Part shown: piece by piece, positions 5,429 through 50,172 of the stretch
How positions within the stretch are numbered: the stretch's first letter is position 1
Layout of the letters: the number at the start of each line of letters is the position of its first letter
Assembly (NCBI GenBank): GCA_035420085.1
Contig: DAOLUH010000022.1
Coordinates: 7,930-71,929, forward strand
Origin: Anaerolineae bacterium
Lineage (GTDB): Bacteria > Chloroflexota > Anaerolineae > B4-G1 > SLSP01
Length of the DNA stretch: 64,000 nucleotides
Reading direction: 5' to 3'
Translations under genes and position numbers: made by a program
The notes under the pieces: model-generated
The model's database searches: none
Told to the model about the DNA's origin: nothing
What the model saw: only the letters and a program-made list of their open reading frames with translations

Positions 5429-6532
5429 ATGAAACGGATTGTTCACATCCTTATGGCCGTGGTCCTCATGGTCACATTGGCGGTCAGTGTCGGCGCACGC
5501 ACGCAGAGCAGACCGGCTATAGCCGCTTCCGTCCCGCCAGCCCCCCAGGTCGAGAGCACAGCGACCAACCTGCTCATTAACGGCGACATGGAAATGCTGC
5601 CTTATGAGTGGTTTTACCCCAATCATTATGTTGCCCCGTACTGGAAGCGGATGTGGTATTATTATTCTGTGATCCCTGAATATGACGAGACACGCGGGGT
5701 ACGAGAGAGTTACTACTATGAGGGGGTCAATGCGCAGGTGTACTTCAAATGGGGACCGGCTTATCAGGCTGGCATGTATCAGATCGTGACAGGGCTAACC
5801 CAATGTACACCCTATGAGTTATCTGCCTATGCACGCAATCACTCAGTCATTGGCGCAGTAGCGCACGCGCGCGTCGCCCTTGATCCCGAAGGCACAAAGC
5901 TGACGCCCGATAACGACGGGGGTTTCTTTTACTTTCCACCCTATATAGCCTGGTCTGCCGAGCAGACGCAGCTCTTCGTATGGGAACGGCTGGCCGTGCA
6001 GACCGAACCCCTGGGCGACAAAATGACAGCCATCCTGTATGCAGCGCCGCAACCAGGAAGCAGCCAGGTACACTATTACGACTCGTATTGGGATGCTGCT
6101 GTTCTAACGCCGGTTTCGTTCCCCAACAACCGCCTACCGGCGCCAGGTTCCTGGAATCCATCAGGCTTCATCTACGATGTCCAGACGACGAAAGGCAGTG
6201 GTACGTTGACGGTCAATTGGAAGACCCAGGGGACAGCATCAACGCAAGTGCGATACGAGATCGTGCCCTATCAAGCGCCCATCTCGTCAACAATTTGGAT
6301 CTCACTCACCCATCACGCTTACTTGCCGTTTGTAGCCAAAGGGGTAAATCCGAACAACCTCACAAAGTACACAACGCTGAATACGACCCCGGTGACAGAC
6401 CATAGTGTCGTTATCACGGGTATACAAGCCGGCGATACGGTGTTGCTCGTGCCGTTGTCTCGCCGTCCCATAGATGGCGTCTGCACAACAGAAACTGCCG
6501 CACCAGTGGTTGTGAAGTTCGATATGCCGTGA
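5429..6532 (+). CDS. Secreted hypothetical protein (CBM-like N-domain, Fn3-like C-domain)
   Basis: AAGGAG RBS and a signal peptide (MKRIVHILMAVVLMVTLAVSVGA). NLLINGDMEM is a CBM4/9-style start. TLTVNWKTQGTASTQVRYE is Fn3-like. Stop TGA overlaps the GTG start of the next gene (GTGA, 6529-6532). Confidence 0.6.
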   Translation: MKRIVHILMAVVLMVTLAVSVGARTQSRPAIAASVPPAPQVESTATNLLINGDMEMLPYEWFYPNHYVAPYWKRMWYYYSVIPEYDETRGVRESYYYEGVNAQVYFKWGPAYQAGMYQIVTGLTQCTPYELSAYARNHSVIGAVAHARVALDPEGTKLTPDNDGGFFYFPPYIAWSAEQTQLFVWERLAVQTEPLGDKMTAILYAAPQPGSSQVHYYDSYWDAAVLTPVSFPNNRLPAPGSWNPSGFIYDVQTTKGSGTLTVNWKTQGTASTQVRYEIVPYQAPISSTIWISLTHHAYLPFVAKGVNPNNLTKYTTLNTTPVTDHSVVITGIQAGDTVLLVPLSRRPIDGVCTTETAAPVVVKFDMP

Positions 6533-9090
6533 GCGCCCCAAAAACTCGCCTCGTCACTCTGGGTTTGCTGCTCATTTTTTTCGCGCAGCTCCTTCAGGCG
6601 GCCAGGTCACTCTCAACGACGGTTGACGAGGGATTTCACATCACTAGCGGCTACGAGTATTTGAGGACGGGGAGGGTGCAACTCTTTGACGAGCATCCTC
6701 CCCTGGCAAAGGCACTGTTTGCGTGGCCACTCAAGTTCGTCCCCGACCTGCCCCCACCGGAAGAGACGCCAGGATACACGGAAGGCGACCTCATCACGGT
6801 TGCCCAGGCGACCGTGTTGGCGTACCAACCCATTGATCGGCTGGTGGTTGCGTGCCGAATTCCTGTGGCGCTACTGTGTGTACTCCTCGCCTGTAGTGTC
6901 TATCGGTGGACAGTTTCGATAAGCGGCAAAGCCGGTGCGCTACTGGCTCTGGCGTTTTTCACGTTTGATCCCAACGTCCTTGCCCACGGTAGCCTGGCAA
7001 CCACCGATTTGGGCAGCACAGCTTTCATCTTCTGGACGTTGTTCGCACTCTATATTTATCTGCAAGCGCCAGGCAAAGTACGCTGGTGGCTTGTCGCTGT
7101 GATGCTTGGGCTTGCGCAGCTAACCAAGCTCACCGCAATCATGCTTTTTCCCGTCGGCGGCATTGTCATTGTGCTCTATGCCGTGCTTCACGCGCCCGAT
7201 CATCGAGGGCGCGCTCTGTTGCGCGCGGTGATTTCTTATGCAGGTATGATCGGCATTGCGGCAGTGGTTGTGTGGGCAGGGTATGGCTTTGAGATACGGC
7301 CAATATCCACCATCGCCAACGGAACGCTGCCCTTGCCTGCCGCCAGCCATATCGAACGCTGGGAACGCCTGCGCGCCAATCTTGCGTATGGGCGGGAAAG
7401 CTATCTCCTCGGACAAAACCGAATGTACGGGTGGTGGCAGTATTTTCCCATCGCCTTCCTTATCAAGACCCCACTTCCAACGCTGATTTTGGCAGTTTGG
7501 GCAATTCTGCGTTTCACGTTGAAACGTTGGAACGTTGGAACGTTAAAACGTCTCACGTCTCATGCCTCACGGATCACAAGTCACACTTTATATCAGATTA
7601 TGAATATGGTTTGTCTGCTCCTCTTTCCACTCCTCTACGCCGCTTCCAGCCTGACGAGTACGATCAACATCGGCTATCGCCATCTGCTGCCGATTTTGCC
7701 GTTTCTCTACGTGGGAGTAGGGAGTAGGGAGTATGGAGTACGGAGTAAGAAGTGCAAGTTGCGAGTGACGAGTGACGAGTTAGGAATCAAGAATCAAGAA
7801 TTACCAATCCTCAATCCTCAGTCCCCCCTTACTCCTTACTCCCTACGCCTTACTCCTTACTTCTTACTTCTCGCCTGGCTCGTGGTTGGCACGCTCACAC
7901 TCAGCCCCAACTATCTCACATTTTTCAATGAAATCGCAGGCGGGCCGCAGAACGGTTGGCGTTTTCTGGCGGACTCCAACACGGATTGGGGACAGACGCT
8001 AAAGGCATTAGCCGCGTATCAACAGAAAAATGAGACAGGGCCAGTCCAGTTATCGCTCTTCACCTTTCTTGATCCGGCGACTTACGGGGTGGATTATGTT
8101 CCCATCGCGCCGATGACCGGGGTGGAGGTCATCCTGCCACAGCGTTTCAACCCGAAGCCAGGTCTTTACGCCATCAGTGCGACGACATTAGATGGGGTGC
8201 CGTTAGTCAATCCCGAAATGTACGATTGGTTCCGCTGGAATATACCCGACACACGAATCGCCAACGCACTTCACTACTACCACGTCACCACCGACGAGGT
8301 TGCCATCACCTGGATTGCGCAGTGCCAAACACCGGTCGCTCCGCTGAACGATGCTGCCATTGCCGAGGGGTTTGGCATCACAGCAGTACGGCGCGTGGAT
8401 TTCGACTGTACGAAAAGCTGGATCATCCCCAGCAATAATGCCATAACCGGTAGATACATTCTTCACGGTGCGCTACTGCAGGACACACTCAAATCGCGGT
8501 TGCATTATGCCGCTCCACCTGCTATAGACCCGTTTGTCGCCCGACGCCTCACAGCACTGACCATTGTTTATCGCCAGCGTATGTACCGCACCGAGCCAGC
8601 GTTCGCTATTTACGCACCTGCCGCCGACACTGTCATACCGTCATCCAACGCCTGGATTGCGCGCGCCGATACGCTATCCACAATGCTCACGACACGAGCA
8701 CCCATCGCTCACCCCATCACATTGGATGGCCCGCTGACCTTTTTAGGGGCAGCGGCTTATCAACAGCAAAACGTCCTCGATGTCGAAACATGGTGGATCG
8801 TGACCGATGTGCCGCCAACGCGCCCCCTGTCCATTATGGGGCATTTGCTCAATAAAGCGGGGGAAATCAAAGGCATTGCCGATGGACTGGGTATTCCGGC
8901 ACTTGCCTGGCAAACAGGCGATGTTCTTGTACAACGCCATGTGTTCCCGCTGGCCGCAGGCGAAACACACGCCAGTTACTTACTGCGCACCGGCGTGTAT
9001 TGGGCGGATGATGGAACACGGTGGCGCATCACAACTGACATGGAGGCAGATGCAATCTTTGTCGCAGTGATACCTACAATCACGCCATAA
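6529..9090 (+). CDS. GT39 / ArnT-PMT_2-like membrane glycosyltransferase with C-terminal beta-sandwich module; carries two in-frame repeat-array insertions
   Basis: 853 aa. TTVDEGFHITSGYEYL..FDEHPPLAKALFAWPL (GT-C D-E loop). DSNTDWGQ. Multiple TM helices. Residues encoded by 7516-7586 and 7713-7873 are low complexity. Confidence 0.8.
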   Translation: MSAPKTRLVTLGLLLIFFAQLLQAARSLSTTVDEGFHITSGYEYLRTGRVQLFDEHPPLAKALFAWPLKFVPDLPPPEETPGYTEGDLITVAQATVLAYQPIDRLVVACRIPVALLCVLLACSVYRWTVSISGKAGALLALAFFTFDPNVLAHGSLATTDLGSTAFIFWTLFALYIYLQAPGKVRWWLVAVMLGLAQLTKLTAIMLFPVGGIVIVLYAVLHAPDHRGRALLRAVISYAGMIGIAAVVVWAGYGFEIRPISTIANGTLPLPAASHIERWERLRANLAYGRESYLLGQNRMYGWWQYFPIAFLIKTPLPTLILAVWAILRFTLKRWNVGTLKRLTSHASRITSHTLYQIMNMVCLLLFPLLYAASSLTSTINIGYRHLLPILPFLYVGVGSREYGVRSKKCKLRVTSDELGIKNQELPILNPQSPLTPYSLRLTPYFLLLAWLVVGTLTLSPNYLTFFNEIAGGPQNGWRFLADSNTDWGQTLKALAAYQQKNETGPVQLSLFTFLDPATYGVDYVPIAPMTGVEVILPQRFNPKPGLYAISATTLDGVPLVNPEMYDWFRWNIPDTRIANALHYYHVTTDEVAITWIAQCQTPVAPLNDAAIAEGFGITAVRRVDFDCTKSWIIPSNNAITGRYILHGALLQDTLKSRLHYAAPPAIDPFVARRLTALTIVYRQRMYRTEPAFAIYAPAADTVIPSSNAWIARADTLSTMLTTRAPIAHPITLDGPLTFLGAAAYQQQNVLDVETWWIVTDVPPTRPLSIMGHLLNKAGEIKGIADGLGIPALAWQTGDVLVQRHVFPLAAGETHASYLLRTGVYWADDGTRWRITTDMEADAIFVAVIPTITP
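7516..7586. repeat. Phased tandem array: ACGTTGAA/ACGTTGGA/ACGTTGGA/ACGTTAAA (8-mers), then ACGTCTC x2, ATGCCTC, ACGGATC, ACAAGTC (7-mers); lies inside the GT39 CDS
   Basis: Read directly from the sequence. The same ACGTTGGAACGTT core occurs at 29555 and 47091. Confidence 0.85.
7713..7873. repeat. 23 consecutive phased heptamers in five sub-families (GGGAGTA, CGAGTGA, AGAATCA, TCAATCC, CTCCTTA); the outer blocks are reverse complements; lies inside the GT39 CDS
   Basis: Read directly. GGAGTA units (7713-7747) are the reverse complement of the TACTCC-containing units (7825-7866). Confidence 0.85.
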
Positions 9091-9130
9091 TGCTCGTGAT
9101 CCCAAAAAAAATCGCCCCAAGGAGAGAAGA

Positions 9131-10528
9131 ATGGTCAAGTCCAAATCCACGTTTTTAATCACTCTGGTTATTGTGATAGGAATTGGTTCTATGGTGATAA
9201 GTTTGCAGATAGTGCCTGCATTAACAGCCGCTAATACCATCCCTTTGAGAACATTGAATGTAACACCAAGTGATGAGGTTTACGTTCCCGCTGGAGAATT
9301 CCTTATGGGATGCAGCGGAGATACAGCGGGGCCATTAGGCTGCGATACAGATGCCTGCCCCATTCATGCCGTCTTTTTGGATGCTTTCTACATTGACAAA
9401 ACCGAAGTTACCAACGCACAATACACAGAATGTGTGAATGCAGGACAATGTCTCCCACCGCTGTCATTCAGTTCAGGCCCAAGTCGCCCTAGCTATTACA
9501 ACAACACAACATACGCCAACTACCCTGTGCTGCACGTAGATTGGCAGCGCGCCATCACTTATTGCCATTGGGTTGGCAAACGCTTGCCCACAGAAGCGGA
9601 ATGGGAAAAAGCGGCGCGCGGTACCGACCGGCGAGCTTTCGCCTGGGGAAATGAGCCACTGACCTGTGACAGAAGCAACAGCAATACTTATTATTCTAAC
9701 GAACAAGGCGAGTATAGAGAAAAACCTTGTGTCGGTGACACAACGCCCGTAGGAAGCTACCCTAATTACCCCAGCCCCTATGGCGCTCTGGATATGACCG
9801 GCAATGTCAGAGAATGGGTGAGTGATTTTTATAGCAGATATTACTATCGTACTTCGCCCTATTACAATCCTACAGTTGTCGAATACGGCGACAAGGGTGA
9901 ACATCTCGTGCGAGGAGGTTCGTGGAAAGAGATAGATCGTCAGTCAACCACCTGGGTTCGGCTTGACGAGGCCGACATATACGAAACCCAACTTATCGGC
10001 TTCCGCTGCGCCAGGACAGCAGGAGGAGGAGGAACACCTACACCTGCACCTACCGCGACACTCACGCCAACGCCAACACCGTATGCGGCGCGTAGCATTG
10101 GAGCGGAGGGGGGGGCAGTCTGGTTAACATACCCGCAACACCTCACCCTACTGACCGTCCCCGAAGGTTCTCTAAACAACCAAACAACATTTACTCTGAC
10201 CTATAATCAGCCTCGCGAAACGAAAGAGCTTCATTCCAACAATCACACTTTTTCCATTGAGGCGCAACCCCAAACCGGCAGTACGGAACTAACTCAGCAC
10301 TATCTTGAGAATCCGGTGCGTCTTGTTATGGGGTACCATGAGCTTTCAGGCATCATCTCCGGCACCCTTGATCTCTACCGGCTCACTGCTGGCGGCTGGA
10401 CCACAGCGCAAATCACAAAGGTGACGCAGGCCTCAGATTACATCGTCGCCGACATTCAATGGCTAGACATCTACGGTTTACTTGGGGAAACCAATCGCAT
10501 ATACTTGCCGCTGACGTTGCGCAAGTGA
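9131..10528 (+). CDS. Formylglycine-generating-enzyme family protein (SUMF1/FGE-sulfatase domain) with PT linker and C-terminal extension
   Basis: AAGGAG RBS and an N-terminal TM segment. FYIDKTEVTNAQY, LPTEAEWEKAARG, DMTGNVREWV and RGGSW motifs. AT-richer than its neighbours. Confidence 0.85.
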   Translation: MVKSKSTFLITLVIVIGIGSMVISLQIVPALTAANTIPLRTLNVTPSDEVYVPAGEFLMGCSGDTAGPLGCDTDACPIHAVFLDAFYIDKTEVTNAQYTECVNAGQCLPPLSFSSGPSRPSYYNNTTYANYPVLHVDWQRAITYCHWVGKRLPTEAEWEKAARGTDRRAFAWGNEPLTCDRSNSNTYYSNEQGEYREKPCVGDTTPVGSYPNYPSPYGALDMTGNVREWVSDFYSRYYYRTSPYYNPTVVEYGDKGEHLVRGGSWKEIDRQSTTWVRLDEADIYETQLIGFRCARTAGGGGTPTPAPTATLTPTPTPYAARSIGAEGGAVWLTYPQHLTLLTVPEGSLNNQTTFTLTYNQPRETKELHSNNHTFSIEAQPQTGSTELTQHYLENPVRLVMGYHELSGIISGTLDLYRLTAGGWTTAQITKVTQASDYIVADIQWLDIYGLLGETNRIYLPLTLRK

Positions 10529-13021: not shown

Positions 13022-14275
13022 CTACCGCACTTTTACTACGCGAAGCTCGATGCGTCCGGCAGGCAGAACGACGCCCCCAGCATCCGTCACGACAAGCCGA
13101 ACACCTGTCTCAGGGTCGTACATCCCCACGCAAAGGGTGTAATCGCCGCGCGGCATGTTACGATCCAGCGCCAGTATGTGCTCATCGCGGATGTATTGGC
13201 CCGGCTGCCACTGCGACGTCGGATAGGTCCATCCCAACGGCACACTGTCATCCTGCGCGGCGACAGCGCCATTGGCATCCAGCACATGGACAAAGACTTT
13301 GTAGTCGCCGGAGACAGCGGCGCGCGCATGCCAGTACAACGTCACCCGCAAGTGCTCGCCCGGCGCAATCCGTTCCGCTGCTTCGTAGCCGATCAGCGCC
13401 ACGGCGTCGCCAAGCGACCACGTACCGGCAGTTTCCGGCAGCGGCGGCGCATCCGTCACTGCGGGCAGATAGTGAAGCGTCGCCAGCGCCAGGTTTGCAG
13501 CGCCGACCGGCGCGCCATTACGCCGGTAGATCGTCAACGTCAGGGTGTAATCCCCGTAGGGAAGAGCGTCAGGAACGGCTAAGGTGTAATGCGAGGTCAC
13601 GGCATCTCCATCGCGGACCAAACCCGGCAGCAGGCCATCGTCCATGCTCTGCTCCGCCTGGGCATACACGCGACTTCCCTCAGCGCCGCGCAAGCGCAGC
13701 ACAAGCTTTTCTGCGTCGGATAGCGCGAAGAGGTCGCCAGACCAGGCCAGCGTCACGTACAGCGGCTCGCCTGGTTCCAGGCGCTGTCGGTTGACGCGCA
13801 CTGCGCGCAGTTCAAAGCCTGTTCCGCCAAGAGACTGTTGCACGGGTTGCCACACACCCTGATCGAATGGTGAAGGGGTATAGCCATAAATGCGGAGCGG
13901 CGTCAAAGTGCTGCCAGGAACCAGCAACGCATCAAGAAAACGATAGTGCGTCTGAAACCACGGCTGCGCCTGCGCACCATCCCATGCCACGCCCGGCCAG
14001 GCGATGACGTAATCAGGTTCAGCGCGTAACGTCGCCACCAGCGCCTCCGCAGCGCCGCCCTCCGGCACAGCAAGCGTAGAACGGTCGCCCAGGCAGCGCG
14101 CCAACGTTGCGGGCGCCGCCACCCGCTCCGCTGGCAACGCATGCGCCTCCAACCACGCCGCAAGCGCAGTGCATGGCGCATCATATTGTGTTTTACAGCC
14201 AGCAAGCAGAGATAGTGCAACGTAAAACGTAAAACGTAAAACGCGACTCGCCACTCGCCACTCGCCGCTCACCAT
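13022..14275 (-). CDS. Lipoprotein with two copies of the beta-sandwich module found at GT39 C-termini (alternative start 14293)
   Basis: Lipobox LLAG|C. Repeated ..LYW..GDY.VFVHVLD..W.PGQ..GDYTL.VGMYD motifs. The N-terminal region is encoded by a heptamer array. Confidence 0.6.
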   Translation of the reverse strand: MVSGEWRVASRVLRFTFYVALSLLAGCKTQYDAPCTALAAWLEAHALPAERVAAPATLARCLGDRSTLAVPEGGAAEALVATLRAEPDYVIAWPGVAWDGAQAQPWFQTHYRFLDALLVPGSTLTPLRIYGYTPSPFDQGVWQPVQQSLGGTGFELRAVRVNRQRLEPGEPLYVTLAWSGDLFALSDAEKLVLRLRGAEGSRVYAQAEQSMDDGLLPGLVRDGDAVTSHYTLAVPDALPYGDYTLTLTIYRRNGAPVGAANLALATLHYLPAVTDAPPLPETAGTWSLGDAVALIGYEAAERIAPGEHLRVTLYWHARAAVSGDYKVFVHVLDANGAVAAQDDSVPLGWTYPTSQWQPGQYIRDEHILALDRNMPRGDYTLCVGMYDPETGVRLVVTDAGGVVLPAGRIELRVVKVR

Positions 14276-14281
14276 TCGCCC
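14219..14281. repeat. Nine phased heptamers (AACGTAA x3, AACGCGA, CTCGCCA x2, CTCGCCG, CTCACCA, TTCGCCC)
   Basis: Read directly. The AACGTAA unit is identical to the array at 24723-24743. Confidence 0.85.
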
Positions 14282-16872
14282 TACTTCTTCCATTTCTCGT
14301 ACAGCGCATCCACATCTACGTCAACGCCCCAGATACGCACCCCATCCAGGTCAATCCAACTGCCGGTTTGCACCAGCGTTTGCTGGTCAGCGGATAGATC
14401 CGCAAATGTGACGCGCTCCGCCGTGATGGAGGCCGGGCCGTAGGAAGGCTTTTTGATGTAGGCGGCCAATCCGGCAATGCGCGCGCCCTGAATCGTGACA
14501 TCGGCGATGGAGACGTGCGACAGATCCTTGCTGACCACGCCAAAATCCGCGTTCTGGATGAAGACACGCTCGGCGGTGAGGCGGCTCATCTCGCCTACAG
14601 ACATGCCCTTATCGCCCAGATTAATCATCCGCGCGTCACGCACCTGAATATCCGCGCCGCTCACGTCAATCGCATCTGCACCGATGTCGTGAAAGGCGCA
14701 ACGCTCGATCACACCCTGCCCAAAGTCCACATCAATGCCGTCGGAACGGGTATTGCCGAACTCCGAATCCACAAAGGCGAAGCGCGCGCGGATGACATTG
14801 AGGCCATCTTCAGCCTGTGTGCGCAGGATGCGGCTGTGTTCGAGGCGGATGGGGCTGCGGTAGAACGTGATCCCGCCGGTCAGCATCCAGCCCTGGCGGT
14901 TAATGGCGTCGGCGGCCTCGACGGTGACGTAGCGCCACAGTGAAGTCTGCCCGGCGTCCAGGACGACGATACCGCGCCACTTCTCGCCTTGTGAACGCAA
15001 TACGACCGGCGCGCTGGCGGCGCCCTCAAAGATCAACGGGCCAGTCGCCAGCAGAAAGTTGTCGTCGCCAAAGTTGAGCGTTGTCCTCGGCGCGAGTCGC
15101 AAGCCATACCCCTCTGGCAGCAGCAAGTCGCCGACCACATCCCATTCGCCGGGCGGGATGGTCAACATTTGTGCGTCGGCGGTCTCGCGCAGATACGAGT
15201 GCTGCGCTACAGCTTCCGCCAGCGTCGGCAGTGTGGGACGCGCCGTGGCCGTCAGCGGCGCAGGATAGGCCAACAGGATCGGCTGCGTGAGGGTTTGCGT
15301 CAATCCCCACACGCGAGTTGTCAGGGTTGCCGCAGCGCTGGTGATGACGCCAGAGATCGAGAAGGTCACATACGGCAGAGTGGATGCATCCTCAGGCAGC
15401 GCCGCCAGAACCGGCGGCGCGACAGACGCCAGGCCGGTGATCGTTTGCGCCGCGCCGAGAGACAGCCGCCGATCACCGACGTTAATCCCCACTAGCTCAA
15501 CCGGCAAATCCATCAAATTGCCGACCACAAGCGCATCTCCCCGCGCTTCAGGGACATAAGCATAGACCATCTGCAGAGGTGTTAACCGCTGGCGGTTCAA
15601 ATCTTGACGACCTCGCAGCCAATCCCACGGCGGCGTCAACACATCCGCGCCGAATTCCGGCGTTAAAGCCGCCGCATAAAGCGCAAACTGCTCGCCCAAC
15701 TCGGCTTCCAACGCTTCCACATATCCCGGCTGGCTCATCCGCCACAGCTCCCGCGCGTAAGCCGACTGCAAGTACGGGTCATCGTAAAATGCCGACGCGG
15801 GCAAACCCACCTGGGCGAAGTCCAGTTCGGGCGAGAACGGATCAGAATCGAAGGAAATTGGCTCCAGTCGCCCGGTCACGGGGCTGTAGTAATAGCGCAG
15901 ATTGTGCCAAATCAAGCCGTGCGGCGCGCTCCATAAATCCGACAGCGCCAGGAATTTCGCCATCGTCTCCATATCGAAGACCTCCGGCGCGGTCAAATTG
16001 CCATCCCATAACCCGCGCAGCAGGCCCACAGCGGCAGTGCGCTGCGCCTGCAACGCTGGAGACGCGCGCACCCGCCCCGCGTTGAATTCGTCCACAATGT
16101 AAAAACGCTCGATGCCCGGCGGAATCACTTGATCGTCGTAGAAAGCGCGCGCCCGCCAGACCAGGTCTTCGGCATAGCGCACAATCACCCCTTCACGACG
16201 TTGCTGCGATTCCAGCAATTCTTTGGCAAACCCTTCTTCCACTGCGTAAATGCCCTTGTCTTCGCCGTTAAGCACCACGCGAATGAACTGATAGCCTACA
16301 CTCAAGACACCCTCGCGGCGCATCGCGCGGTGAAATAGCCACTCATTCAGATATGTGCGCATTGAGGGATCATGAATTGAGAAAACCTGCATCCCTTCAA
16401 GATAGCCCTCGCCGCGCAACTCTATGCGGAACGACCACTTGTCACTGACCAGGTGATCGGCCCAGTCACCCTTGAGGCGCACCCTGGCGGAGAGCGGCGC
16501 GCCGCGCCAATGCAGTGTCGCCGGCACAAAGTCGGCATCATCCGCCAACAAAATCCACAACGCCAACGCCTCCTGGCGTTTAGCTTCAAGCTGCGCGAAA
16601 TCAGCGGGGGCGATATCTATATAAAGCGTCTCCAACGTATCGCCCAGTTCAGGCACAGTTGGCGTGGGTGTTGGAGGTGGTGCGGACGTAGGCGCGAGCG
16701 GCGCCGGCGACTGAAGCGGGATGGCGGCCTGGGGCGTCGAAGAGGGAGAGGTCAACAGCGGCATGGCGACCAGCGCCGTCGCCAACCCGGCGGCAAACGC
16801 GAGCAGCAACAGCGTCAGCAGCACGGGCGGGCGCAAGCGGGGGTAAACTTTGCCGCGCTCATCCACTTTCAT
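14281..16872 (-). CDS. Membrane-anchored CotH kinase-family protein with C-terminal parallel beta-helix (CotH-2)
   Basis: Start chosen at MKVDERGKVY (ATG c16870-16872), which forms an ATGA overlap with the upstream stop. TM anchor LLTLLLLAFAAGLATALVA and a PT linker. CotH core VVLNGEDKGIYAVEEGF. PbH1-like repeats near the C-terminus. Confidence 0.8.
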   Translation of the reverse strand: MKVDERGKVYPRLRPPVLLTLLLLAFAAGLATALVAMPLLTSPSSTPQAAIPLQSPAPLAPTSAPPPTPTPTVPELGDTLETLYIDIAPADFAQLEAKRQEALALWILLADDADFVPATLHWRGAPLSARVRLKGDWADHLVSDKWSFRIELRGEGYLEGMQVFSIHDPSMRTYLNEWLFHRAMRREGVLSVGYQFIRVVLNGEDKGIYAVEEGFAKELLESQQRREGVIVRYAEDLVWRARAFYDDQVIPPGIERFYIVDEFNAGRVRASPALQAQRTAAVGLLRGLWDGNLTAPEVFDMETMAKFLALSDLWSAPHGLIWHNLRYYYSPVTGRLEPISFDSDPFSPELDFAQVGLPASAFYDDPYLQSAYARELWRMSQPGYVEALEAELGEQFALYAAALTPEFGADVLTPPWDWLRGRQDLNRQRLTPLQMVYAYVPEARGDALVVGNLMDLPVELVGINVGDRRLSLGAAQTITGLASVAPPVLAALPEDASTLPYVTFSISGVITSAAATLTTRVWGLTQTLTQPILLAYPAPLTATARPTLPTLAEAVAQHSYLRETADAQMLTIPPGEWDVVGDLLLPEGYGLRLAPRTTLNFGDDNFLLATGPLIFEGAASAPVVLRSQGEKWRGIVVLDAGQTSLWRYVTVEAADAINRQGWMLTGGITFYRSPIRLEHSRILRTQAEDGLNVIRARFAFVDSEFGNTRSDGIDVDFGQGVIERCAFHDIGADAIDVSGADIQVRDARMINLGDKGMSVGEMSRLTAERVFIQNADFGVVSKDLSHVSIADVTIQGARIAGLAAYIKKPSYGPASITAERVTFADLSADQQTLVQTGSWIDLDGVRIWGVDVDVDALYEKWKK

Positions 16873-17597
16873 AGCAGCATCCCCTGCACATACTTCGAGA
16901 AACGATCTACCGGCGCAGGGAAGTGCGCCAGCGCGTCGGACAACCGCCGGTAATCCACGTCCGTGGGAAACGCTTTCAACTCCACCACTAGCGGGGCTTG
17001 TGCATACGCCGGGCGCATTAGATTTGGGCAAGCTGCCGCGCGTTGATCGTAAGTGCACAGCGCAGTGTCAACCGTCAGGCGCAGCGCGTCATCCGGCGTG
17101 GCGTAATAGGCGCGCCAATAATGATTGATGAGCGTTGGGATGGCGAATACATCCAGCCATTGCCGCGCTTCCGGCAGCACGGCAGCCCGCACATCACACA
17201 CCAACGTATGCCACGTCGTCTCCGCGAGATCAAAAACCGCGGCGGCGGGACTCATCGCCTTCCACCCCACCATGCCCTGCTTGTGTTTCCGTTCGAGGTT
17301 AGCCGCCGTGATCCGCGCGGTATCTGTCCCATACCACCGCAGCCGCAGCTTGTCCCGCTCGCCGACGCCGCTGAGATTGGCGTTGAGACCCGCATAGCGC
17401 GCCGTGTCGAAGTAGACGTTGTTCACCTGGCGCGGCGGATAGGTTACGCGCCACTGCGCCGGATGAAGTCGCACCCAACTCTCCACATCCGCCAGCCAGC
17501 GCGCGGGTAGTGGAATTTTGATTTCGTAGCGGGGCGAGGTGTAAGCCAGTTGTGAGCCAGGGGTTGAGGATTGTTGGTAACTGGGCAAGTGACTCAT
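16869..17597 (-). CDS. VTC-domain (triphosphate-tunnel, polyphosphate-polymerase-like) protein; the ORF track start at 17681 lies in an octamer array
   Basis: RYEIKIPL, VNNVYFDT, RDKLRLRWYG and LERKHKQG match the bacterial VTC/CYTH-like pattern. No signal peptide. Start taken at MSHLPSYQQ (c17595-17597). Confidence 0.7.
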   Translation of the reverse strand: MSHLPSYQQSSTPGSQLAYTSPRYEIKIPLPARWLADVESWVRLHPAQWRVTYPPRQVNNVYFDTARYAGLNANLSGVGERDKLRLRWYGTDTARITAANLERKHKQGMVGWKAMSPAAAVFDLAETTWHTLVCDVRAAVLPEARQWLDVFAIPTLINHYWRAYYATPDDALRLTVDTALCTYDQRAAACPNLMRPAYAQAPLVVELKAFPTDVDYRRLSDALAHFPAPVDRFSKYVQGMLL

Positions 17598-17676
17598 TCG
17601 CTGACTCGCAGATTCGCTGATTCGCTCACTCGCTGATTCGCTCATTCGCTGACTCGCTGATTCGCTCATTCGCTCC
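17593..17676. repeat. Ten tandem octamers CTSAYTCG (CTCATTCG / CTGATTCG / CTGACTCG) spanning the CotH-1 stop and the VTC 5' region
   Basis: Read directly. GATTCGCT/CATTCGCT units recur at 45419-45446. Confidence 0.85.
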
Positions 17677-24712: not shown

Positions 24713-24722
24713 TAAAGACTGA

Positions 24723-24799
24723 AACGTAAAACGTAAAACGTAATGCGCGAAGAATCTCTTACGTTTTACGCTTTACATTTTACGCCTTACGCTTTACGT
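24723..24799. repeat. Eleven phased heptamers forming a hairpin: AACGTAA x3, spacer, then CTTACGT/TTTACGC/TTTACAT/TTTACGC/CTTACGC/TTTACGT
   Basis: Read directly. The arms are reverse complements. Confidence 0.85.
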
Positions 24800-24806
24800 T
24801 TAAGAG

Positions 24807-28135: not shown

Positions 28136-29545
28136 GTGTTGATGAAAAAGTTATTGTTTGTTGGTCTTGTACTTCTGTTGATCGTCACATCCCTCACCGG
28201 CTGCGAGACGCCCACCATCGCCCCCACCCCCACGCCGACGCGCACGCCGGTTCTCCCCACCCCCACACCGACGCACACCCCCACCCCCACACCGACCGCC
28301 ACCCCCTCTATCACCCCCAGCCCCACGCCAACGCTGCCGCCGGGACTGCTCTTGCCGCCGCAGCCAGCGGAGTTGCCGGGCTGGCCGGCGTTGCCTGTTG
28401 ATCTCTACTTTATGCGCGATGGGAAAATCTGGTCGTGGTTGGCGGAAGGCGGCGCAGTGGAAAGTGTGCCAGTTGCGGTGGAAGGGGAGACCGTGCTCAC
28501 CTACCAGATAACGCAGGACGAACGCTACGTGCTGTATGTGACCGACGCTGGCAAACTGTACGTTTTCGACCGCGCCCAGTGGCAGCACACGCACATCCCC
28601 ACCGCGGGCCGGTTGATTGACGACCGGGGCATTTATTTCGACGTGACGCCGGACACACGTTACCTGGTCTACCTGGCATGGGGCATCCAACCAACAGCCG
28701 AGATGACCACCAATAACACGCTCATCGGGACTATCCTGACAATCGAATTGCCCAAACTGCGGCAGGCACAGCGAACATTGGGGTTTTGCGGCAGCGACGG
28801 CGATGCTGGCTGTATGGGCGTCCACCTCGCGCCAGATGGCAACCTTGTCGCCTACGAAGATGGCGCAGGGTTGTGGCTGACCGCGCTCGACAGCCCCGAA
28901 CCCCGCCTGGCACTGCCTTCCTCCAGCACACCGCCCTGGCGATTCAAGGCCTGGTCGCCCAACAGCCGTTGGTTAATCCTGGAAGTGCAATCGGCGGAAG
29001 GGACGCTCATAGGACTGCTCAATGTAGCAACAGGACAAATCACCCCCATCGGCGACGTGGCCTGTGTGGAAGGCTGCGACATCGGGCTGAGTTGGGGAAC
29101 GCAAAGCCTGTGGCTGTTTACCGATACGCCACAGCAGGGCTGCCTCTTCCAGATACAGCCAGCCTTCGGCGATACGCCAATGAGTATGCCTTACGAGATG
29201 TGTGCGCTAGGTGAGTGGGCACTGCACCCCGCGTCTCCGTTGGCGCTGCCCGACGGGTGGGTCGCGTTCGTGCATCGCGGCTGCGGCGAGGGTTGCCCCG
29301 GCCCGGCGCCTGGCCTCTACTTCCTGGGTCCCGACGAAGCCGCGCATCCCATCGCCTTGCTTGACCGCAACGACGGTTCCGCCCTGTGGGCGCCCGACGG
29401 TTCGGCCTTCCTCTACTTCGACGCGGAGAATCGCCCCTATCGCCTGGGTGTGACCGGCGGCGCAGGTTTCTGGGATGTGAGCCGCGCCCTCGCAGGCGCA
29501 CACACATTCCACTGGGGTACACGCCTTGAGTCGCCGGAACAGTGA
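28136..29545 (+). CDS. Lipoprotein with PT-rich linker and PD40-like beta-propeller repeats
   Basis: MKKLLFVGLVLLLIVTSLTGC lipobox (the ATG at 28142 is likely the true start). LAPDGNLVAYE, WSPNSRWLILE and WAPDGSAFLYF. Confidence 0.65.
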   Translation: MLMKKLLFVGLVLLLIVTSLTGCETPTIAPTPTPTRTPVLPTPTPTHTPTPTPTATPSITPSPTPTLPPGLLLPPQPAELPGWPALPVDLYFMRDGKIWSWLAEGGAVESVPVAVEGETVLTYQITQDERYVLYVTDAGKLYVFDRAQWQHTHIPTAGRLIDDRGIYFDVTPDTRYLVYLAWGIQPTAEMTTNNTLIGTILTIELPKLRQAQRTLGFCGSDGDAGCMGVHLAPDGNLVAYEDGAGLWLTALDSPEPRLALPSSSTPPWRFKAWSPNSRWLILEVQSAEGTLIGLLNVATGQITPIGDVACVEGCDIGLSWGTQSLWLFTDTPQQGCLFQIQPAFGDTPMSMPYEMCALGEWALHPASPLALPDGWVAFVHRGCGEGCPGPAPGLYFLGPDEAAHPIALLDRNDGSALWAPDGSAFLYFDAENRPYRLGVTGGAGFWDVSRALAGAHTFHWGTRLESPEQ

Positions 29546-29546
29546 G

Positions 29547-29622
29547 ACGTTTGAACGTTGGAACGTTCAAACGTGTTAACGTTGAAACATTCCAACACTG
29601 GCGTTTGGCGTTTGACGTTTGA
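29547..29622. repeat. Phased array ACGTTTGA/ACGTTGGA/ACGTTCAA/ACGTGTTA/ACGTTGAA/ACATTCCA (8-mers), then ACACTGG/CGTTTGG/CGTTTGA/CGTTTGA (7-mers)
   Basis: Read directly. Begins 2 nt after the stop at 29543-29545. Confidence 0.85.
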
Positions 29623-34106: not shown

Positions 34107-34181
34107 GTAGACGGTAGACAGTAAACGGTAGACAGGGGATTCTTCCTGTCTACCGTTTTTGTTTGCTGTCTACGGTTCTAC
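34107..34181. repeat. GTAGACG/GTAGACA/GTAAACG/GTAGACA heptamers, loop, then TGTCTAC-type heptamers; starts at the first nt after the pfp stop
   Basis: Read directly. Confidence 0.85.
34123..34165 (+). terminator. Intrinsic terminator built from the heptamer array: AAACGGTAGACA / TGTCTACCGTTT 12-bp stem followed by TTGTTTG
   Basis: Perfect 12-bp stem, 12-nt loop and a T-rich tail, 17 nt after the pfp stop. Confidence 0.6.
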
Positions 34182-34225
34182 GACCGATGGTTTGAATACT
34201 TCAATAGCCCGGGCTTTTCTGCTCC

Positions 34226-34253
34226 CGTCTACTGTCTACCGTCTACTGTCTAC
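34226..34253. repeat. CGTCTAC/TGTCTAC x4 heptamers, the inverted copy of 34107-34134; overlaps the xylB stop codon
   Basis: Read directly. The TAG stop (c34250-34252) lies in the last unit. Confidence 0.85.
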
Positions 34254-35746
34254 CATAAAGCGTGATACGTGGGCGCGAGGGCGGGATAGAGCGCGGCAAA
34301 TGTATCGGCGAGCGCCGCATAACGCGCAACATTCTCCGGGTTGGGCGTGACCACCTCATCGGCGTATCGCACGGCCTGGGCGGCCGCGTCTGCCACATCT
34401 GTGTAGACGCCGCTCCCCACCCCGGCCAGCAACGCCGCCCCCACCGCCGCCGCCTCGACCGTCCGCGTCTGGTACAGCGGGTGATTGAACATATCCGCCT
34501 GCAATTGCAGCCACAATGGATGCTGCGTCGCGCCGCCCGACGCGATGATGCGCTCCGGCGCTACGCCGAGATCGAGCATCAGCTCAAGCCCCTGGCGCAT
34601 CCCGAAGACAACGCCCTCCATCACCGCCCGCGCCATGTGCGCGCGCCCGTGGCGCAGCGTCAGCCCGACAAAGCTGCCGCGTGCGCGCGAATCCATGTGC
34701 GGCGTGCGCTCGCCCGCGAGATACGGCTGGAAGAACAATCCTTCCGCGCCGGGCGGGATAGTTGCCGCGGCGTCGGCTATCGCCTGGTATGAAAGACCGG
34801 ACATCACACTGTCGCGCAGCCACTTGAGCGCAAGCCCCGCCGCGAGCATCGCCGATTCGAGGTGCCACATATCTGGCATAGCGTGGCAGAAGCAATGCAG
34901 GCGCGCCTGTGGATCATAAGCCGGCTGCGCGCTGGGGGCGAAAAGCTGCCCGCCGGTGCCGATGGTGGATGAGAGCACGCCCGGGGCGACGACGCCGTGT
35001 CCCACAGCCTGCATCGCCTGATCGCTGCCGCCGTAGATGACGGGCGTGCCAGGACGCAGACCCGTCGCCGCCGCGATCTCCGGCAACAACCCGCCTGCCA
35101 CTGCCGCCGACCCGAACACGGGCGGGAGCACTCGCGCATCGAGCGCCAATGCAGCGAGCAGCGGCGCGCTCCAGCAACGATTCGCCGTGTCGAAGAGCAA
35201 CGTTGAGGAGGCGTCGCTTGGCTCCGCGCCGATCTCGCCGGTGAAACGGTAACGGACGTAATCTTTCGGCAACAACAAATACGTGGTTGCCGCAGCGACG
35301 TCGGCTGCATGCTCGCGCAGCCAGAGCCACGTCGCCAACATAAAGCCGGTTGCCAGCGGATTCGCCGTCCACGCGGCCAACTGTGCGCGCCCGATGCGCG
35401 CATACACCTCCGCCACCTGCGCCGCCGACCGCTGATCCGCCCAGATGATTGCCGGACGCAGCGCGCGCCCGTGTGCATCGAGGCATACCGTTCCGTGCAT
35501 CTGCCCGGAGAAACCGATAGCCTGCACCTGATCTGCCGGGATGTCTGCCGCGACCACGGCGCGACGCAGCGTGTCCAACGCCGCCTCCAGCCACGTCTCT
35601 GGGTTCTGCTCGGCCCACCCGGGGCGCGGCGTTTCCACGGCGTATTCGCGCGCTGCCATGCCTAACAGCGCACCATCCGGGCTGATCATCACTGTTTTGG
35701 CACTGGATGTTCCGATGTCAATGCCTATCAAAGTCGGGGTTGCCAT
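34250..35746 (-). CDS. xylB: Xylulokinase (FGGY carbohydrate kinase)
   Basis: LIGIDIGTSSAKTV, GWAEQNPETW and FGGY C-terminal motifs. 498 aa. Confidence 0.85.
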   Translation of the reverse strand: MATPTLIGIDIGTSSAKTVMISPDGALLGMAAREYAVETPRPGWAEQNPETWLEAALDTLRRAVVAADIPADQVQAIGFSGQMHGTVCLDAHGRALRPAIIWADQRSAAQVAEVYARIGRAQLAAWTANPLATGFMLATWLWLREHAADVAAATTYLLLPKDYVRYRFTGEIGAEPSDASSTLLFDTANRCWSAPLLAALALDARVLPPVFGSAAVAGGLLPEIAAATGLRPGTPVIYGGSDQAMQAVGHGVVAPGVLSSTIGTGGQLFAPSAQPAYDPQARLHCFCHAMPDMWHLESAMLAAGLALKWLRDSVMSGLSYQAIADAAATIPPGAEGLFFQPYLAGERTPHMDSRARGSFVGLTLRHGRAHMARAVMEGVVFGMRQGLELMLDLGVAPERIIASGGATQHPLWLQLQADMFNHPLYQTRTVEAAAVGAALLAGVGSGVYTDVADAAAQAVRYADEVVTPNPENVARYAALADTFAALYPALAPTYHALW

Positions 35747-43771: not shown

Positions 43772-43806
43772 GACTTTCGACGTTGGACTTTAGACTTTCG
43801 ACTTTC
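43772..43806. repeat. Heptamer array GACTTTC/GACGTTG/GACTTTA/GACTTTC/GACTTTC immediately upstream of the degV SD
   Basis: Read directly. Confidence 0.8.
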
Positions 43807-44681: not shown

Positions 44682-45382
44682 TGGCCTCTCTGGAAACGAC
44701 ATCTGCGCTGCGGTGGGCATGGCTGCGCGGTGTGACCCGGGCCACGCCGATTGTAATGGGTTACGTTCCCATCGGCTTCGCGTATGGCGTACTCGCGCAG
44801 CAGGCGGGCCTTTCAATCCTGAACACCGTGCTGATGTCGCTGCTGGTGTACGCGGGGTCGGCGCAGTTGATCGCGGTGGGGCTGTTTGCGACCGGCGCGC
44901 CGGCCCTGTCGCTCATCCTGACGACGTTTGTGGTGAATCTGCGCCACCTGCTGATGTCGGCGGCGCTGTCGCCATATATGCAGCACTGGCGCAAAGGCGA
45001 GCTGGCCGCTTTCGCCTACGAGCTGACCGACGAGAGTTTCGCCGTCCACATCGCGCAGTTTGCCGAAAGCGCGTCGCCCAAAGCCGAAGTCTTCGCCGTC
45101 AACGTCACCGCGCAGCTCTCGTGGATCCTGGGATCGTGGCTCGGCGCAGTCGCCGGACAGTTGATCGCCGACGTGAAGCCGTTGGCGCTGGACTACGCCC
45201 TGCCGGCGATGTTCATCGCGCTGCTGGTGATGCAGATCAAGGACAAGCGGCACATCATCGTCGCCGCCGCCACCGGCCTGCTTGCCGTTGTGTTGGCTCT
45301 GGGCGGATTGGGACACTGGGCCGTCATCATCGCCGCACTTATCGGCGCAACGCTCGGCGTGGTGCTGGAGATTGGGGATTAG
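44681..45382 (+). CDS. azlC: AzlC-family branched-chain amino acid exporter subunit
   Basis: Start MASLETT (TAATG overlap with the degV stop). GYVPIGFAYGVLAQQAGLS. 233 aa. Confidence 0.8.
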   Translation: MASLETTSALRWAWLRGVTRATPIVMGYVPIGFAYGVLAQQAGLSILNTVLMSLLVYAGSAQLIAVGLFATGAPALSLILTTFVVNLRHLLMSAALSPYMQHWRKGELAAFAYELTDESFAVHIAQFAESASPKAEVFAVNVTAQLSWILGSWLGAVAGQLIADVKPLALDYALPAMFIALLVMQIKDKRHIIVAAATGLLAVVLALGGLGHWAVIIAALIGATLGVVLEIGD

Positions 45383-45446
45383 GGATTAGGGATTAGGGAT
45401 TGGGGATTGGGGAATGGGAATTCGCTGATTCGCTCATTCGCTGATT
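45370..45446. repeat. GATTGGG/GATTAGG x3/GATTGGG x2/GAATGGG heptamers, then AATTCGCT/GATTCGCT/CATTCGCT octamers; fills the whole azlC-azlD spacer
   Basis: Read directly. Covers the azlC stop (45380-45382) and ends at the azlD ATG (45447). Confidence 0.85.
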
Positions 45447-45788: not shown

Positions 45789-47090
45789 ATGAAGAACAAG
45801 TTAAGCGCCATTGTCATCATTACAGTCGCCATGATCGGCCTTGCGCTGAACGCGCCAGCGCCGCATACCATTGACGCGCGCGCAGGCGTTCCGGCGCATA
45901 GCGATGTCATCACGTCCACGGTCGCGCCGCGCAACGTCATCCTCTTCATCGGGGATGGGATGGGACCGGAACATGTGCGCGCCGCCGGGATGTATCTGAA
46001 TGGCAGCGCGGGGACGCTGGTGATGGAATCGTTCCCCTACTCCAGCACGATGACCACTTATTCAGCCGACAACGCCATCACCGATTCGGCGGCAGGAGCG
46101 ACAGCGATGGCGACAGGGCACAAGGTCGCCAACGGCGTGCTTTCCGTCGCCTGGCCCGGCGACGAGAGCGAACTCGAAACGCTGGTCGAACGGTTTCATA
46201 CCTATTGCAAGCGCGCCGGACTGGTCACCACGACGCCAGCCACCCACGCCACACCCGCGGCCTTCGGCGCGCACGAATTTTCCCGCACCTATTACAACAA
46301 CATCGCCAATGATTACCTGACGCAGACCCGCCCCGACGTGATCTTCGGCGGTGGGGGCTATGGCCTGAATCCGTCCAACGCCACCCTCGCCGGCTACACG
46401 GTGATCCTGGATCGTGCCGGTATGCAGGCGCTCACGCCGCCGTTTACGGAGCGGGTGTCCGGACAATTCGGCCTCACCAATCTGCCCTACGAGTATGATT
46501 ATGTCATGGGGCTGGATCCAGGCTACACCACTCTACCCCACCTCTCAGAAATGGTCAGCACGGCGCTCAAGCTTCTCGAAAACACGCCTAACGGCTTCTT
46601 CCTGATGGTGGAAGGCGGGCGCATTGACCACGCCGGGCACGCCAACGACATCGCGCGCGACGTCTTCGAGGTGCTCGAATTCGATCATGCTGTCGAAATC
46701 GCCTACACGTGGGCTATGTCGCGCACGGATACGCTCATCATCGTCACGGCGGATCACGAAACCGGCGGGCTGCAGGTCATCGCCAATAACGGCGTGGGGC
46801 AATTCCCCACCGTCACGTGGACCTCGACCGCACACACTGCCGCTGCCGTCCCCGTTTACGCCTGGGGTGTGAACGCCGACCTGGCGACGCAAGTAGCCGA
46901 TAACACGGACATTCACCAGTTGGCGTTGGCGGGCCTGACCGGGACGCCACAATGCACCCCCAGTGCAACGCGCCTCGTGACCTTCCGCAGCCGTACCCGG
47001 CAGATCGGGCGACTCATCCTCGTTGGCATTACCGTCAGCGTCGGCCTGTATTCCCTTTTAGAAGCGCATCCACAACCCATAGCGCGTTAA
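45789..47090 (+). CDS. Alkaline phosphatase (PhoA family) with C-terminal TM anchor
   Basis: ILFIGDGMGPEH, TDSAAGATAMATGHK and VEGGRIDHAGHAND. Confidence 0.85.
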   Translation: MKNKLSAIVIITVAMIGLALNAPAPHTIDARAGVPAHSDVITSTVAPRNVILFIGDGMGPEHVRAAGMYLNGSAGTLVMESFPYSSTMTTYSADNAITDSAAGATAMATGHKVANGVLSVAWPGDESELETLVERFHTYCKRAGLVTTTPATHATPAAFGAHEFSRTYYNNIANDYLTQTRPDVIFGGGGYGLNPSNATLAGYTVILDRAGMQALTPPFTERVSGQFGLTNLPYEYDYVMGLDPGYTTLPHLSEMVSTALKLLENTPNGFFLMVEGGRIDHAGHANDIARDVFEVLEFDHAVEIAYTWAMSRTDTLIIVTADHETGGLQVIANNGVGQFPTVTWTSTAHTAAAVPVYAWGVNADLATQVADNTDIHQLALAGLTGTPQCTPSATRLVTFRSRTRQIGRLILVGITVSVGLYSLLEAHPQPIAR

Positions 47091-47117
47091 AACGTTGGAA
47101 CGTTCAAACGTTCAAAC
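47091..47117. repeat. Octamer array AACGTTGG/AACGTTCA/AACGTTCA starting right after the phosphatase stop
   Basis: Shares the 19-mer ACGTTGGAACGTTCAAACG with 29555-29573. Confidence 0.8.
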
Positions 47118-48026: not shown

Positions 48027-48042
48027 GAAACCTTCGCAAGGG
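48011..48042 (+). terminator. Perfect 14-bp hairpin CCCTTGCGAAGGTT-AGGA-AACCTTCGCAAGGG. The left arm encodes the last five codons and the stop spans the arm/loop junction.
   Basis: Read directly. Related copies at 57458-57482 and 61188-61235. Confidence 0.6.
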
Positions 48043-48055
48043 TGGCGATATTCGT

Positions 48056-48083
48056 TTGACGTTTGCCGGATTCTGCCTATCAT
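48056..48083 (+). promoter_or_regulatory. Candidate promoter TTGACG, 16 nt, TATCAT upstream of the defence islet; the -35 lies in a CGTTTGA heptamer pair
   Basis: -35 at 48056-48061 and -10 at 48078-48083. The ATG at 48127 is preceded by GAGGAAAGAGG. Confidence 0.3.
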
Positions 48084-50168: not shown

Positions 50169-50172
50169 GATT

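Follow-up and report, generated by a model that had tools for sequence, protein, structure and literature searches.

How can a multi-pass membrane enzyme hold tandem repeats of seven and eight nucleotides, unit lengths that are not multiples of three, inside its reading frame? The question is raised by a 64-kb stretch of an Anaerolineae genome (contig DAOLUH010000022.1, positions 7,930 to 71,929; hereafter the window, in whose coordinates positions are given). The coding sequence (CDS) at 6529..9090 on the plus strand encodes 853 amino acids and is predicted, from the open reading frame (ORF) list, Pfam, AlphaFold2 (AF2) and Foldseek, to be a PMT_2-type GT-C lipid-carrier-dependent glycosyltransferase. 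Two repeat arrays, here called block 1 and block 2, lie within it. We consider it likely that these blocks are repeat DNA resembling the short tandemly repeated repetitive (STRR) sequences of cyanobacteria, either old in the gene family or repeatedly seeded at permissive loops, and that they turn over in place, tolerated by the enzyme and translated as a cytoplasmic linker.

The host ORF is uninterrupted through both blocks and encodes the peptides ...RFTLKRWNVGTLKRLTSHASRITSHTLYQ... and ...VGVGSREYGVRSKKCKLRVTSDELGIKNQELPILNPQSPLTPYSLRLTPYFLLL..., as an initial annotation made from the letters alone had stated. Block 1 opens with four plus-strand octamers at 7516..7547, ACGTTGAA, ACGTTGGA, ACGTTGGA and ACGTTAAA (ACGTTGRA), which encode part of residues 330-340 and were detected by Tandem Repeats Finder (TRF; period 8, 4.5 copies) and as direct-repeat family D1. 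It continues on the same strand at 7548..7589 with about six degenerate heptamers (ACGTCTC, ACGTCTC, ATGCCTC, ACGGATC, ACAAGTC and ACACTTT) that encode ..RLTSHASRITSHT.. and were delimited by TRF and by heptamer comparison with the orthologue L008; the TCACGNN or ‘HASRIT’ unit type is common across the gene family. This arrangement corrects the earlier layout of block 1, whereas the proposed 23 heptamers of block 2 in one register were recovered, with three weak transitions between units.

Block 2 (7713-7873) comprises 161 nucleotides, or 23 heptamers. Its left arm (7713..7754, plus strand) reads GGGAGTA three times, then TGGAGTA, CGGAGTA and AGAAGTG, and encodes GVGSREYGVRSKK. The centre (7755..7824, plus strand) contains ten heptamers in three sub-blocks of CGAGTGA, GAATCAA and CAATCCT types, which were found by TRF and form the loop of a hairpin. 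The right arm (7825..7873, plus strand) consists of seven heptamers of CTCCTTA/CTTCTTA type, encodes PLTPYSLRLTPYFLL and, as inverted repeat I1, is the reverse complement of the left arm. Over the two blocks TRF reports sub-arrays of period 8 at 7516-7551 and of period 7 at 7548-7571, 7713-7747, 7762-7780, 7784-7801, 7805-7824 and 7827-7868. Identity within block 2 is 0.76 at lag 7, compared with 0.20-0.37 at lags that are not multiples of 7, and identities between adjacent units, out of seven, run 7, 7, 6, 6, 4, 3, 4, 7, 6, 4, 6, 6, 3, 6, 6, 2, 6, 6, 5, 6, 6 and 5. A single register can be kept without any indel. The sub-blocks are degenerate, the longest perfect run in the host arrays being the three GGGAGTA units. 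Matches to GGAGTANGGAGTA and ACGTTGRAACGTTGRA each number eight, where 0.03 and 0.13, respectively, are expected by chance; both blocks consist of 7-nt (also 8-nt) tandem units in several copies, above chance.

The outer parts of block 2 had been predicted to pair, and they do so in silico. The inverted arms at 7716-7753 and 7831-7868 (38 nucleotides each) are 82% complementary, and the predicted RNA fold of about 43 pairs has a free energy of -66.7 kcal/mol (z = -3.6; none of 200 shuffles as stable). The fold of block 1 is not significant (z = -0.9). A promoter and terminator scan returned nothing at block 1 or block 2, and no U-tract follows the block 2 stem. An Rfam scan of 7300-8100 gave no family; it gave sub-threshold look-alikes of plant miRNA precursors, which match block 2 because of its long hairpin.

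The arrays are DNA-level repeats by origin, as the block 1 octamer recurs in two intergenic arrays and the arms are multi-copy in the metagenome. The ACGTTGRA octamer is found on the plus strand between ORFs at 29547..29570 and, together with ACGTTCAA, at 47084..47115, in agreement with the intergenic type assigned to these repeats initially. At least eight further clusters of 7/8-nt arrays occur in the window (14219-14280, 17593-17675, 24722-24802, 29536-29621, 34107-34254, 43772-43806, 45366-45446 and 47085-47117), all of which fall between ORFs, where they often take up the spacer, so that this genome has many dispersed, mainly intergenic arrays; within the window only the host gene at 6529-9090 is affected. 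Almost all of the longer spacers contain such an array, which often adjoins a stop or start codon; the density is approximately one per 6 kb, and several arrays can fold into hairpins as inverted pairs (for example, 24722-24802, and 34107-34170 with a T-run behind it).

The arm repeats extend well beyond this genome. In the source metagenome (run X1) the GGAGTA/TACTCC arm word reaches a depth of approximately 1280-1500 compared with 31 in the flank, which indicates that the arm units are multi-copy in the community, and there the arms also flank different short loops and so form hairpins at further loci. Exact (GGAGTAG)3 arrays are present in more than 120 metagenome contigs with guanine-plus-cytosine (GC) contents from 0.33 to 0.71. 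For 27 of 120 such contigs the array falls within a long ORF, in frame in the unrelated proteins listed below and always as the TACTCC strand, which is free of stops. We checked ten array-bearing ORFs from this array-seeded scan against Pfam. Seven of them (L144:11267-14260 (-), L142:155-1219 (-), L150:12978-13679, L130:766-3759, L136:2385-5258, L086:3066-4532 and L162:1-1059) comprise a MalT-like regulator, a glutamate racemase, a Sua5/YrdC protein, a DNA polymerase I, a class A penicillin-binding protein, a NurA protein and a TSCPD protein. The MalT-like regulator of L144 carries both arms in frame directly after its Walker A motif (..GVGSKEYGV..SYSLLPTP..). The inverted GGAGTA...TACTCC module also occurs as an intergenic hairpin in contigs L079, L149 and L176.

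The host protein matches Pfam PMT_2 (PF13231) over residues 107-247 with 39.1 bits (cut-off 26.1). A protein collection search retrieved 1275 homologues from Anaerolineae, which carry PF13231, often with PF02366, and are named ‘glycosyltransferase family 39’ or ArnT-like in NCBI annotation. The AF2 model, built with 37 homologues as input, has a mean predicted local distance difference test score (pLDDT) of 82.6 and a predicted template modelling score of 0.80. Its best Foldseek matches are ALG9, Pmt4, AglB, Pmt1-Pmt2 and ArnT (E = 2e-6 to 6e-5), and it has the multi-pass membrane domain and extracytoplasmic soluble domain of a GT-C fold. The acidic pair D33 and E34, directly after transmembrane helix 1 (TM1) in the predicted first extracytoplasmic loop, is invariant in 37 sequences, as expected of GT-C/PMT_2 enzymes, and is a putative catalytic motif by likeness to PMT and ArnT. 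No match was obtained in NCBIfam for the glycosyltransferase, nor in a PDB sequence search with the family profile. The ‘GT39’ type and typical flanks first assigned to the host fit the PMT_2 GT-C match and the motifs flanking the inserts, which are invariant in the family; the ‘GT39’ label itself comes from the NCBI names of homologues, and the model is equally near ALG9, ArnT and oligosaccharyltransferase folds.

Block 1 corresponds to residues 330-354 and block 2 to residues 395-449. As had been suggested for the inserts, both lie between transmembrane helices, which the AF2 model places nearby at 316-342, 346-376, 383-398 and 437-458. Block 1 is modelled with moderate confidence (pLDDT about 60) as an extension of two helices, and residues 401-435 of block 2 have a pLDDT below 50; in the model, block 1 is a predicted helical extension and block 2 a predicted disordered linker. 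The final transmembrane helix (437-458) begins in the model with the last codons of the right arm, and the conserved NIGYRHLLP motif sits between the two blocks. The insert loops are probably cytoplasmic because of D33-E34 after TM1, NIGYRHLLP between the inserts, the soluble domain of 400 amino acids after the last helix and the lysine/arginine (K/R)-rich inserts. Tryptic peptides spanning the inserts would extend into ...LGIKNQELPILNPQSPLTPYSLR.

We compared these loops across 77 related loci (L001-L077) and the window, a set that contains 166 GT39-like ORFs. Regions anchored on the invariant motifs YFP..F..KTP, IGYRHLLP..P and DSNTDWGQ numbered 109 for loop 1 and 69 for loop 2, and a periodic run was counted when its 7/8-nt score was at least 10. 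Such runs occur in 37 of the 69 loop-2 regions and 21 of the 109 loop-1 regions, compared with approximately none in shuffles and 0-1 at other lags. Loop-1 regions have a minimum length of 132 nt and a median of 156 nt (window, 195 nt), and loop-2 regions a minimum of 168 nt and a median of 204 nt (window, 270 nt). Array-free orthologues, in which the loop has only 10-12 residues, do exist, and relative to them the window gains about 60 nt in loop 1 and 72 to 102 nt in loop 2 (270 versus 168-198 nt). The units of the loop arrays are diverse and unrelated, including CGCATCA (HASRIT), CGAATTA (NYELRIT), GCGAATG (ANGEWRM), CGTCAGC, TTGCCCC, TCTCAAA and GTAGGGA/TTACTCC. Orthologues at 40-77% identity and tandem paralogues contain repeat-derived sequence in both corresponding loops, and this occupation across the family indicates that other lineages have the inserts as well, contrary to the lineage-specific origin that the initial annotation had offered for verification by orthologue alignment. 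Its alternative that an intergenic repeat had invaded the gene and is tolerated in loops survives with respect to tolerance in frame; a recent private invasion does not, as the orthologues share the sites, an outcome that the initial annotation had itself named as refuting.

Members of the closest clade (L008, L001, P0003 and P0005) have the GGAGTA/TACTCC arms and block 1 in common with the window. Block 1 of L008, whose protein is 77% identical, has the same length as that of the window and differs by point changes only. The centre of block 2 is the most variable part among these close orthologues, and contains (CGAATYA)n in L008 and L001. Sequence comparison indicates that the arrays of this clade are orthologous. 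The GT39-like genes mostly form groups of two to three tandem paralogues (for example, L002:2543, L013:164/2439/4837 and L069:4885/7275/9885), which carry arrays at equivalent loops and sometimes in earlier loops.

The reading frame is kept almost throughout the family, with 108 of the 109 loop-1 regions and all 69 loop-2 regions in frame and stop-free. The sole broken region, L075:2253-2675, holds an unrelated G-run palindromic element of approximately 230 nt inside its loop-1 array, with GCAAGTT units on either side. Extended G/C runs together with inverted ends (..GGCCCCCCCTTAATCCCCCC..GGGGGGGAATTAAAGGGGGGGGGG..) characterize this element, and it recalls the small dispersed repeats that can be nested in cyanobacterial heptamer arrays. 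Within 62 periodic segments in genes (2367 nt) the coding frame has 0 stops, the two remaining forward frames have 16 apiece and every reverse frame has 58-60, indicating that surviving arrays have their stop-poor strand as the coding strand. Among RAGTAx units, none of the 8 in which TAx is read as a codon has G or A at x, compared with 22 of 32 in other phases (hypergeometric P of about 6e-4). After the third GGGAGTA of the window comes a T, which yields TAT in place of the expected TAG; the window’s intergenic arrays have stops in most frames. Compared with L005 and L001, the ratio of nonsynonymous to synonymous differences (pN/pS) is 0.6-1.1 in the blocks and 0.25-0.37 in the remainder of the gene, which suggests that the blocks are under relaxed constraint at greater distance.

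All sequencing runs were examined as Logan unitigs, which break inside arrays. A metatranscriptome unitig from a different sample (X3, 6900-7747) reads continuously across block 1 and on into block 2, with no segment spliced out there. It has 14 additional nucleotides (GGAGTAGGGAGTAT, two heptamers) at 7720 in the left arm, linked to the single-nucleotide polymorphism T7696C, the C allele of which is also present in unitigs of runs X1 and X2. This is the in-frame arrangement of L001, and the X3 unitig ends upstream of the rest of block 2. The difference between X3 and the window is strain-level variation in unit number. We also considered that the inserts might be an intron, an intein or a bypassed segment, readings that we rejected in view of the RNA unitig through block 1 and of a coding frame that is specifically cleared of stops.

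Taken together, the explanation we favor would operate as follows. The blocks would be 7-8 nt short-tandem-repeat DNA of the same kind as the arrays in the intergenic spacers of this genome, occupying two short loops, probably on the cytoplasmic side, of a GT-C glycosyltransferase that crosses the membrane many times. The arrays may be ancient in the gene family or may have been seeded anew, repeatedly, at the same permissive loops. In-place turnover would then proceed by unit slippage and point mutation, both the slippage and the age being deduced. Selection would keep the total length a multiple of three and the coding strand free of stops, and where a unit gives a stop in every third copy, that copy would be substituted. 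Transcription with the gene, which is seen from block 1 as far as the beginning of block 2, would be followed by translation into a low-complexity, K/R-rich linker of the protein. The hairpin of block 2 would be a by-product of the inverted-array architecture, a common array form elsewhere, and not a required feature. The arrays would be passengers rather than a dedicated switch.

Several other explanations were weighed against this one. That repeats were mis-joined into the gene during assembly is extremely improbable: de Bruijn unitigs do break within block 2, but unitigs of the independent DNA runs X1, X2 and X4 show 0 differences across both blocks and the 7692-7711 junction, and a protein identical to that of the host is present in JGI, NCBI and ENA records, so we regard the assembly as sound; moreover, dozens of independently assembled orthologues share the architecture. 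Another alternative is a contingency locus, in which slippage of 7-nt units would shift the frame and so toggle the expression of a surface-glycosylation enzyme, along with that of its tandem paralogues, an idea close to the on/off switch of the initial annotation. Units that are not multiples of three, the two extra heptamers in RNA from another sample, the enrichment of arrays in a glycosyltransferase family that often has two to three tandem paralogues, and the long near-perfect arrays of some orthologues (L071, about 18 units; L004, about 14) all fit such a switch. The data nonetheless lend it no support and make it an unlikely reading. The loop regions are in frame, with the exception of L075, which is broken by an inserted element and not by unit number; the host arrays are degenerate, with at most three identical consecutive units and no long perfect tract; block 1 has not changed in length since the split from L008; and the allele with 14 extra nucleotides matches an in-frame arrangement. 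Fragments matching the host protein at more than 77% identity were absent among the matches listed, and within the 90% clusters of P0001, P0002 and P0005 the members did not vary in length except through alternative start calls. OFF alleles were found neither among the 69-109 related regions nor in the protein clusters; this in-frame evidence is not decisive, because consensus assemblies mask minority OFF alleles. Four runs mapped to the long L071 arrays were uninformative on indels, as the unitigs break in arrays.

Could the insert itself be selected, either as a hairpin (an RNase III site, an attenuator, or a translation pause aiding insertion of the last helix and export of the C-terminal domain) or as a K/R-rich peptide with a period of seven residues? 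The strength of the block 2 stem and the conservation of its arms in L008, L001 and P0003 argue for this, as do the H-x-S-R-x-T remnants that are widespread in loop 2, and the excess of loop-2 hairpins, the lower pS of the blocks relative to L008 and the array enrichment of the family, all given below, point the same way. We nevertheless judge it doubtful, given that most orthologues have no hairpin and many no array, that the units and hence the peptides vary widely, that block 1 is unstructured, that the stem is without a U-tract, a terminator prediction or an Rfam family, and that constraint on the blocks appears relaxed at greater distance. Recent independent invasions by a mobile palindromic element that targets these sites, comparable to a miniature inverted-repeat transposable element (MITE) or a Rickettsia palindromic element (RPE), seem decidedly improbable. 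The in-frame module of the unrelated L144, the intergenic hairpins of L079, L149 and L176 and the many source-metagenome loci with identical arms and other loops would be expected of an element of this type, but no conserved full-length consensus was seen, and no separate terminal inverted repeats or target-site duplication were noticed at the block borders, for which no systematic search was made. Block 1 and the arms are also orthologous in the window, L008 and L001, at the same position and with point changes only, and the units grade into one another in a single 7-nt register, as growth in place predicts. Some observations count against tolerated passenger DNA. Array density is 0.23 per kb in the 166 GT39-like ORFs compared with at most 0.044 per kb in neighbouring ORFs, and three of the ten ORFs checked in the array-seeded scan are themselves PMT_2 glycosyltransferases (L161:2200-4791 (-), L114:3828-5579 (-) and L177:1787-3799); pure neutral tolerance does not predict this enrichment, unless it stems from an ancestor that already carried arrays or from the large number of paralogues. 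Of the 69 loop-2 regions, 15 have hairpins with z below -2, which is above chance (median z = -0.6), and these include a distant clade with a different sequence (L034 and L042). Compared with L008, the closest orthologue, pN/pS is 0.33 in block 1 and 0.26 in the rest of the gene, and pS is lower in the blocks (0.27 and 0.40) than elsewhere (0.49), in each case from small counts. In addition, we infer the cytoplasmic side from the model, D33-E34, the C-terminal domain and the K/R content, and the translation of the inserts from the frame and stop statistics. The PMT_2 envelope glycosyltransferases of filamentous Chloroflexota might even be preferred and maintained hosts of arrays that act as slippage-driven switches or loop-length variators across tandem paralogues and so diversify the surface against phages, or that act as mRNA hairpins pacing translation between transmembrane segments, although we view this as speculative and not likely.

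The tolerated-repeat explanation invites comparison with known repeat systems. STRR sequences are heptanucleotide arrays of heterocystous cyanobacteria (Calothrix and Nostoc/Anabaena), and the origin and function of heptamer arrays have been open questions since their discovery in cyanobacteria. Heptameric simple sequence repeats (SSRs), among them G-rich arrays in Xanthomonas and Nostoc, lie mostly between genes and have no known function (PMC4692102). The repeats of the window share with both the 7-nt tandem units and the many dispersed arrays, mostly intergenic near ORF ends and occasionally intragenic. They differ in their host, which belongs to the Chloroflexota (Anaerolineae) and neither to the cyanobacteria nor to the gammaproteobacteria, and in lacking the named STRR units. 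Here, moreover, two arrays are fixed in frame in a conserved enzyme, with the same loops occupied across the family, and the units are many, intergrading and often ACG-containing. Among 7/8-nt TRF units of the window and L001-L077, 51% contain ACG/CGT, compared with 19% in composition-matched shuffles, and the commonest are CACGTTT, ACGTAAA, ACGCATT and GGGAGTA; the ACG excess may stem from common ancestry of the GT39 arrays or from a bias of the array-making process towards certain sequences.

RPEs are selfish palindromic sequences that have entered protein-coding genes without breaking the frame (PMC10969869, citing Ogata et al. 2000). As with RPEs, the inserts described here are in frame and leave the protein intact, block 2 is palindromic, the peptide has a surface or loop position, and the insert is retained in orthologues. 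Unlike RPEs, which form consensus families of about 150 bp in many unrelated genes of one genome, these inserts show no shared consensus apart from the heptamer units and consist of non-triplet tandem units; block 1 is not palindromic, one gene only is affected in the 64-kb window, and unrelated host genes of these arrays were seen only in other metagenome contigs. We conclude that the blocks belong to neither STRR nor RPE and only work like them, because the host phylum and units differ from those of STRR and the defined consensus of an RPE is absent.

Phase-variable glycosyltransferases are known in Haemophilus, Neisseria and Campylobacter. Such SSR contingency loci resemble the present gene in having non-triplet tandem units in a surface-glycosylation ORF, to which the single two-unit strain difference of X3 can be added. 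They differ from it in that the tracts here are degenerate and nearly always in frame, no OFF alleles were found, and the arrays lie mid-gene in loops, at a position conserved over deep divergence. A further likeness is to repetitive extragenic palindromic (REP) and MITE hairpins, terminator-like repeats included, as repeat-built stems with a variable loop follow genes at 34107-34170 (with a T-run) and in other contigs. In contrast to REP/MITE sequences, the stems are tandem heptamers and not a fixed palindrome, the copy in the gene has no U-tract, and no transposase-related ends or target duplications were seen, although no systematic search for these was made.

These observations suggest that non-triplet repeats of 7-8 nt can persist for long periods inside an essential-looking membrane enzyme, with the cost handled by simple filters: a length divisible by three, a stop-free strand, and substitution in each third unit that would otherwise be a stop. 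The arrays may serve as natural markers of insertion-tolerant loops in GT-C glycosyltransferases. Low-complexity peptides such as HASRITH, ANGEWRI, GVGSREYGV and PYSLLLT in Chloroflexota proteins would be translated repeat DNA and not domains. A literature search found no description of heptamer arrays in Chloroflexota/Anaerolineae, and the Anaerolineae appear to form a second large group of hosts of STRR-like heptamer arrays, one that had gone undescribed.

We also searched proteins with the query (RITHHAS)n (P0121-P0143), which retrieved only ‘hypothetical proteins’ of 41-73 amino acids from many phyla, with Vibrio, Xylella, Desulfococcaceae and Anaerolineales among the sources. Heptamer arrays of CGCATCA type that were mistaken for genes probably account for these entries, and the query was set aside as uninformative on in-gene arrays. 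In four metagenomes from sludge, wastewater or biofilm, the TTTCACG-type array at L071:5267-5320 reaches a word depth of approximately 2,400-30,000 compared with 12-55 in the flanking sequence, indicating that this unit is at enormous copy number in those communities. The window belongs to a genome from activated sludge: the sequencing runs that contain it are sludge metagenomes, and the close homologues and related loci are all from Anaerolineae metagenome-assembled genomes.

The gene upstream of the glycosyltransferase (5429-6532) is predicted to encode a probably secreted protein, and its stop overlaps the glycosyltransferase start (6529-6532). The downstream neighbour (9131-10528) has FGE-sulfatase/GldK/EgtB-like matches. 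Another ORF of the window, 13025-14320 on the minus strand, has only the C-terminal sub-domain in common with the glycosyltransferase family (profile positions 679-796, E = 1e-15), and its upstream end reaches into the array at 14219-14280. The GC content is 0.52-0.545 around the glycosyltransferase (6001-10000) and 0.48-0.53 at 48001-52000, compared with approximately 0.60-0.63 elsewhere in the window, and these two low-GC segments may be acquired or compositionally distinct.

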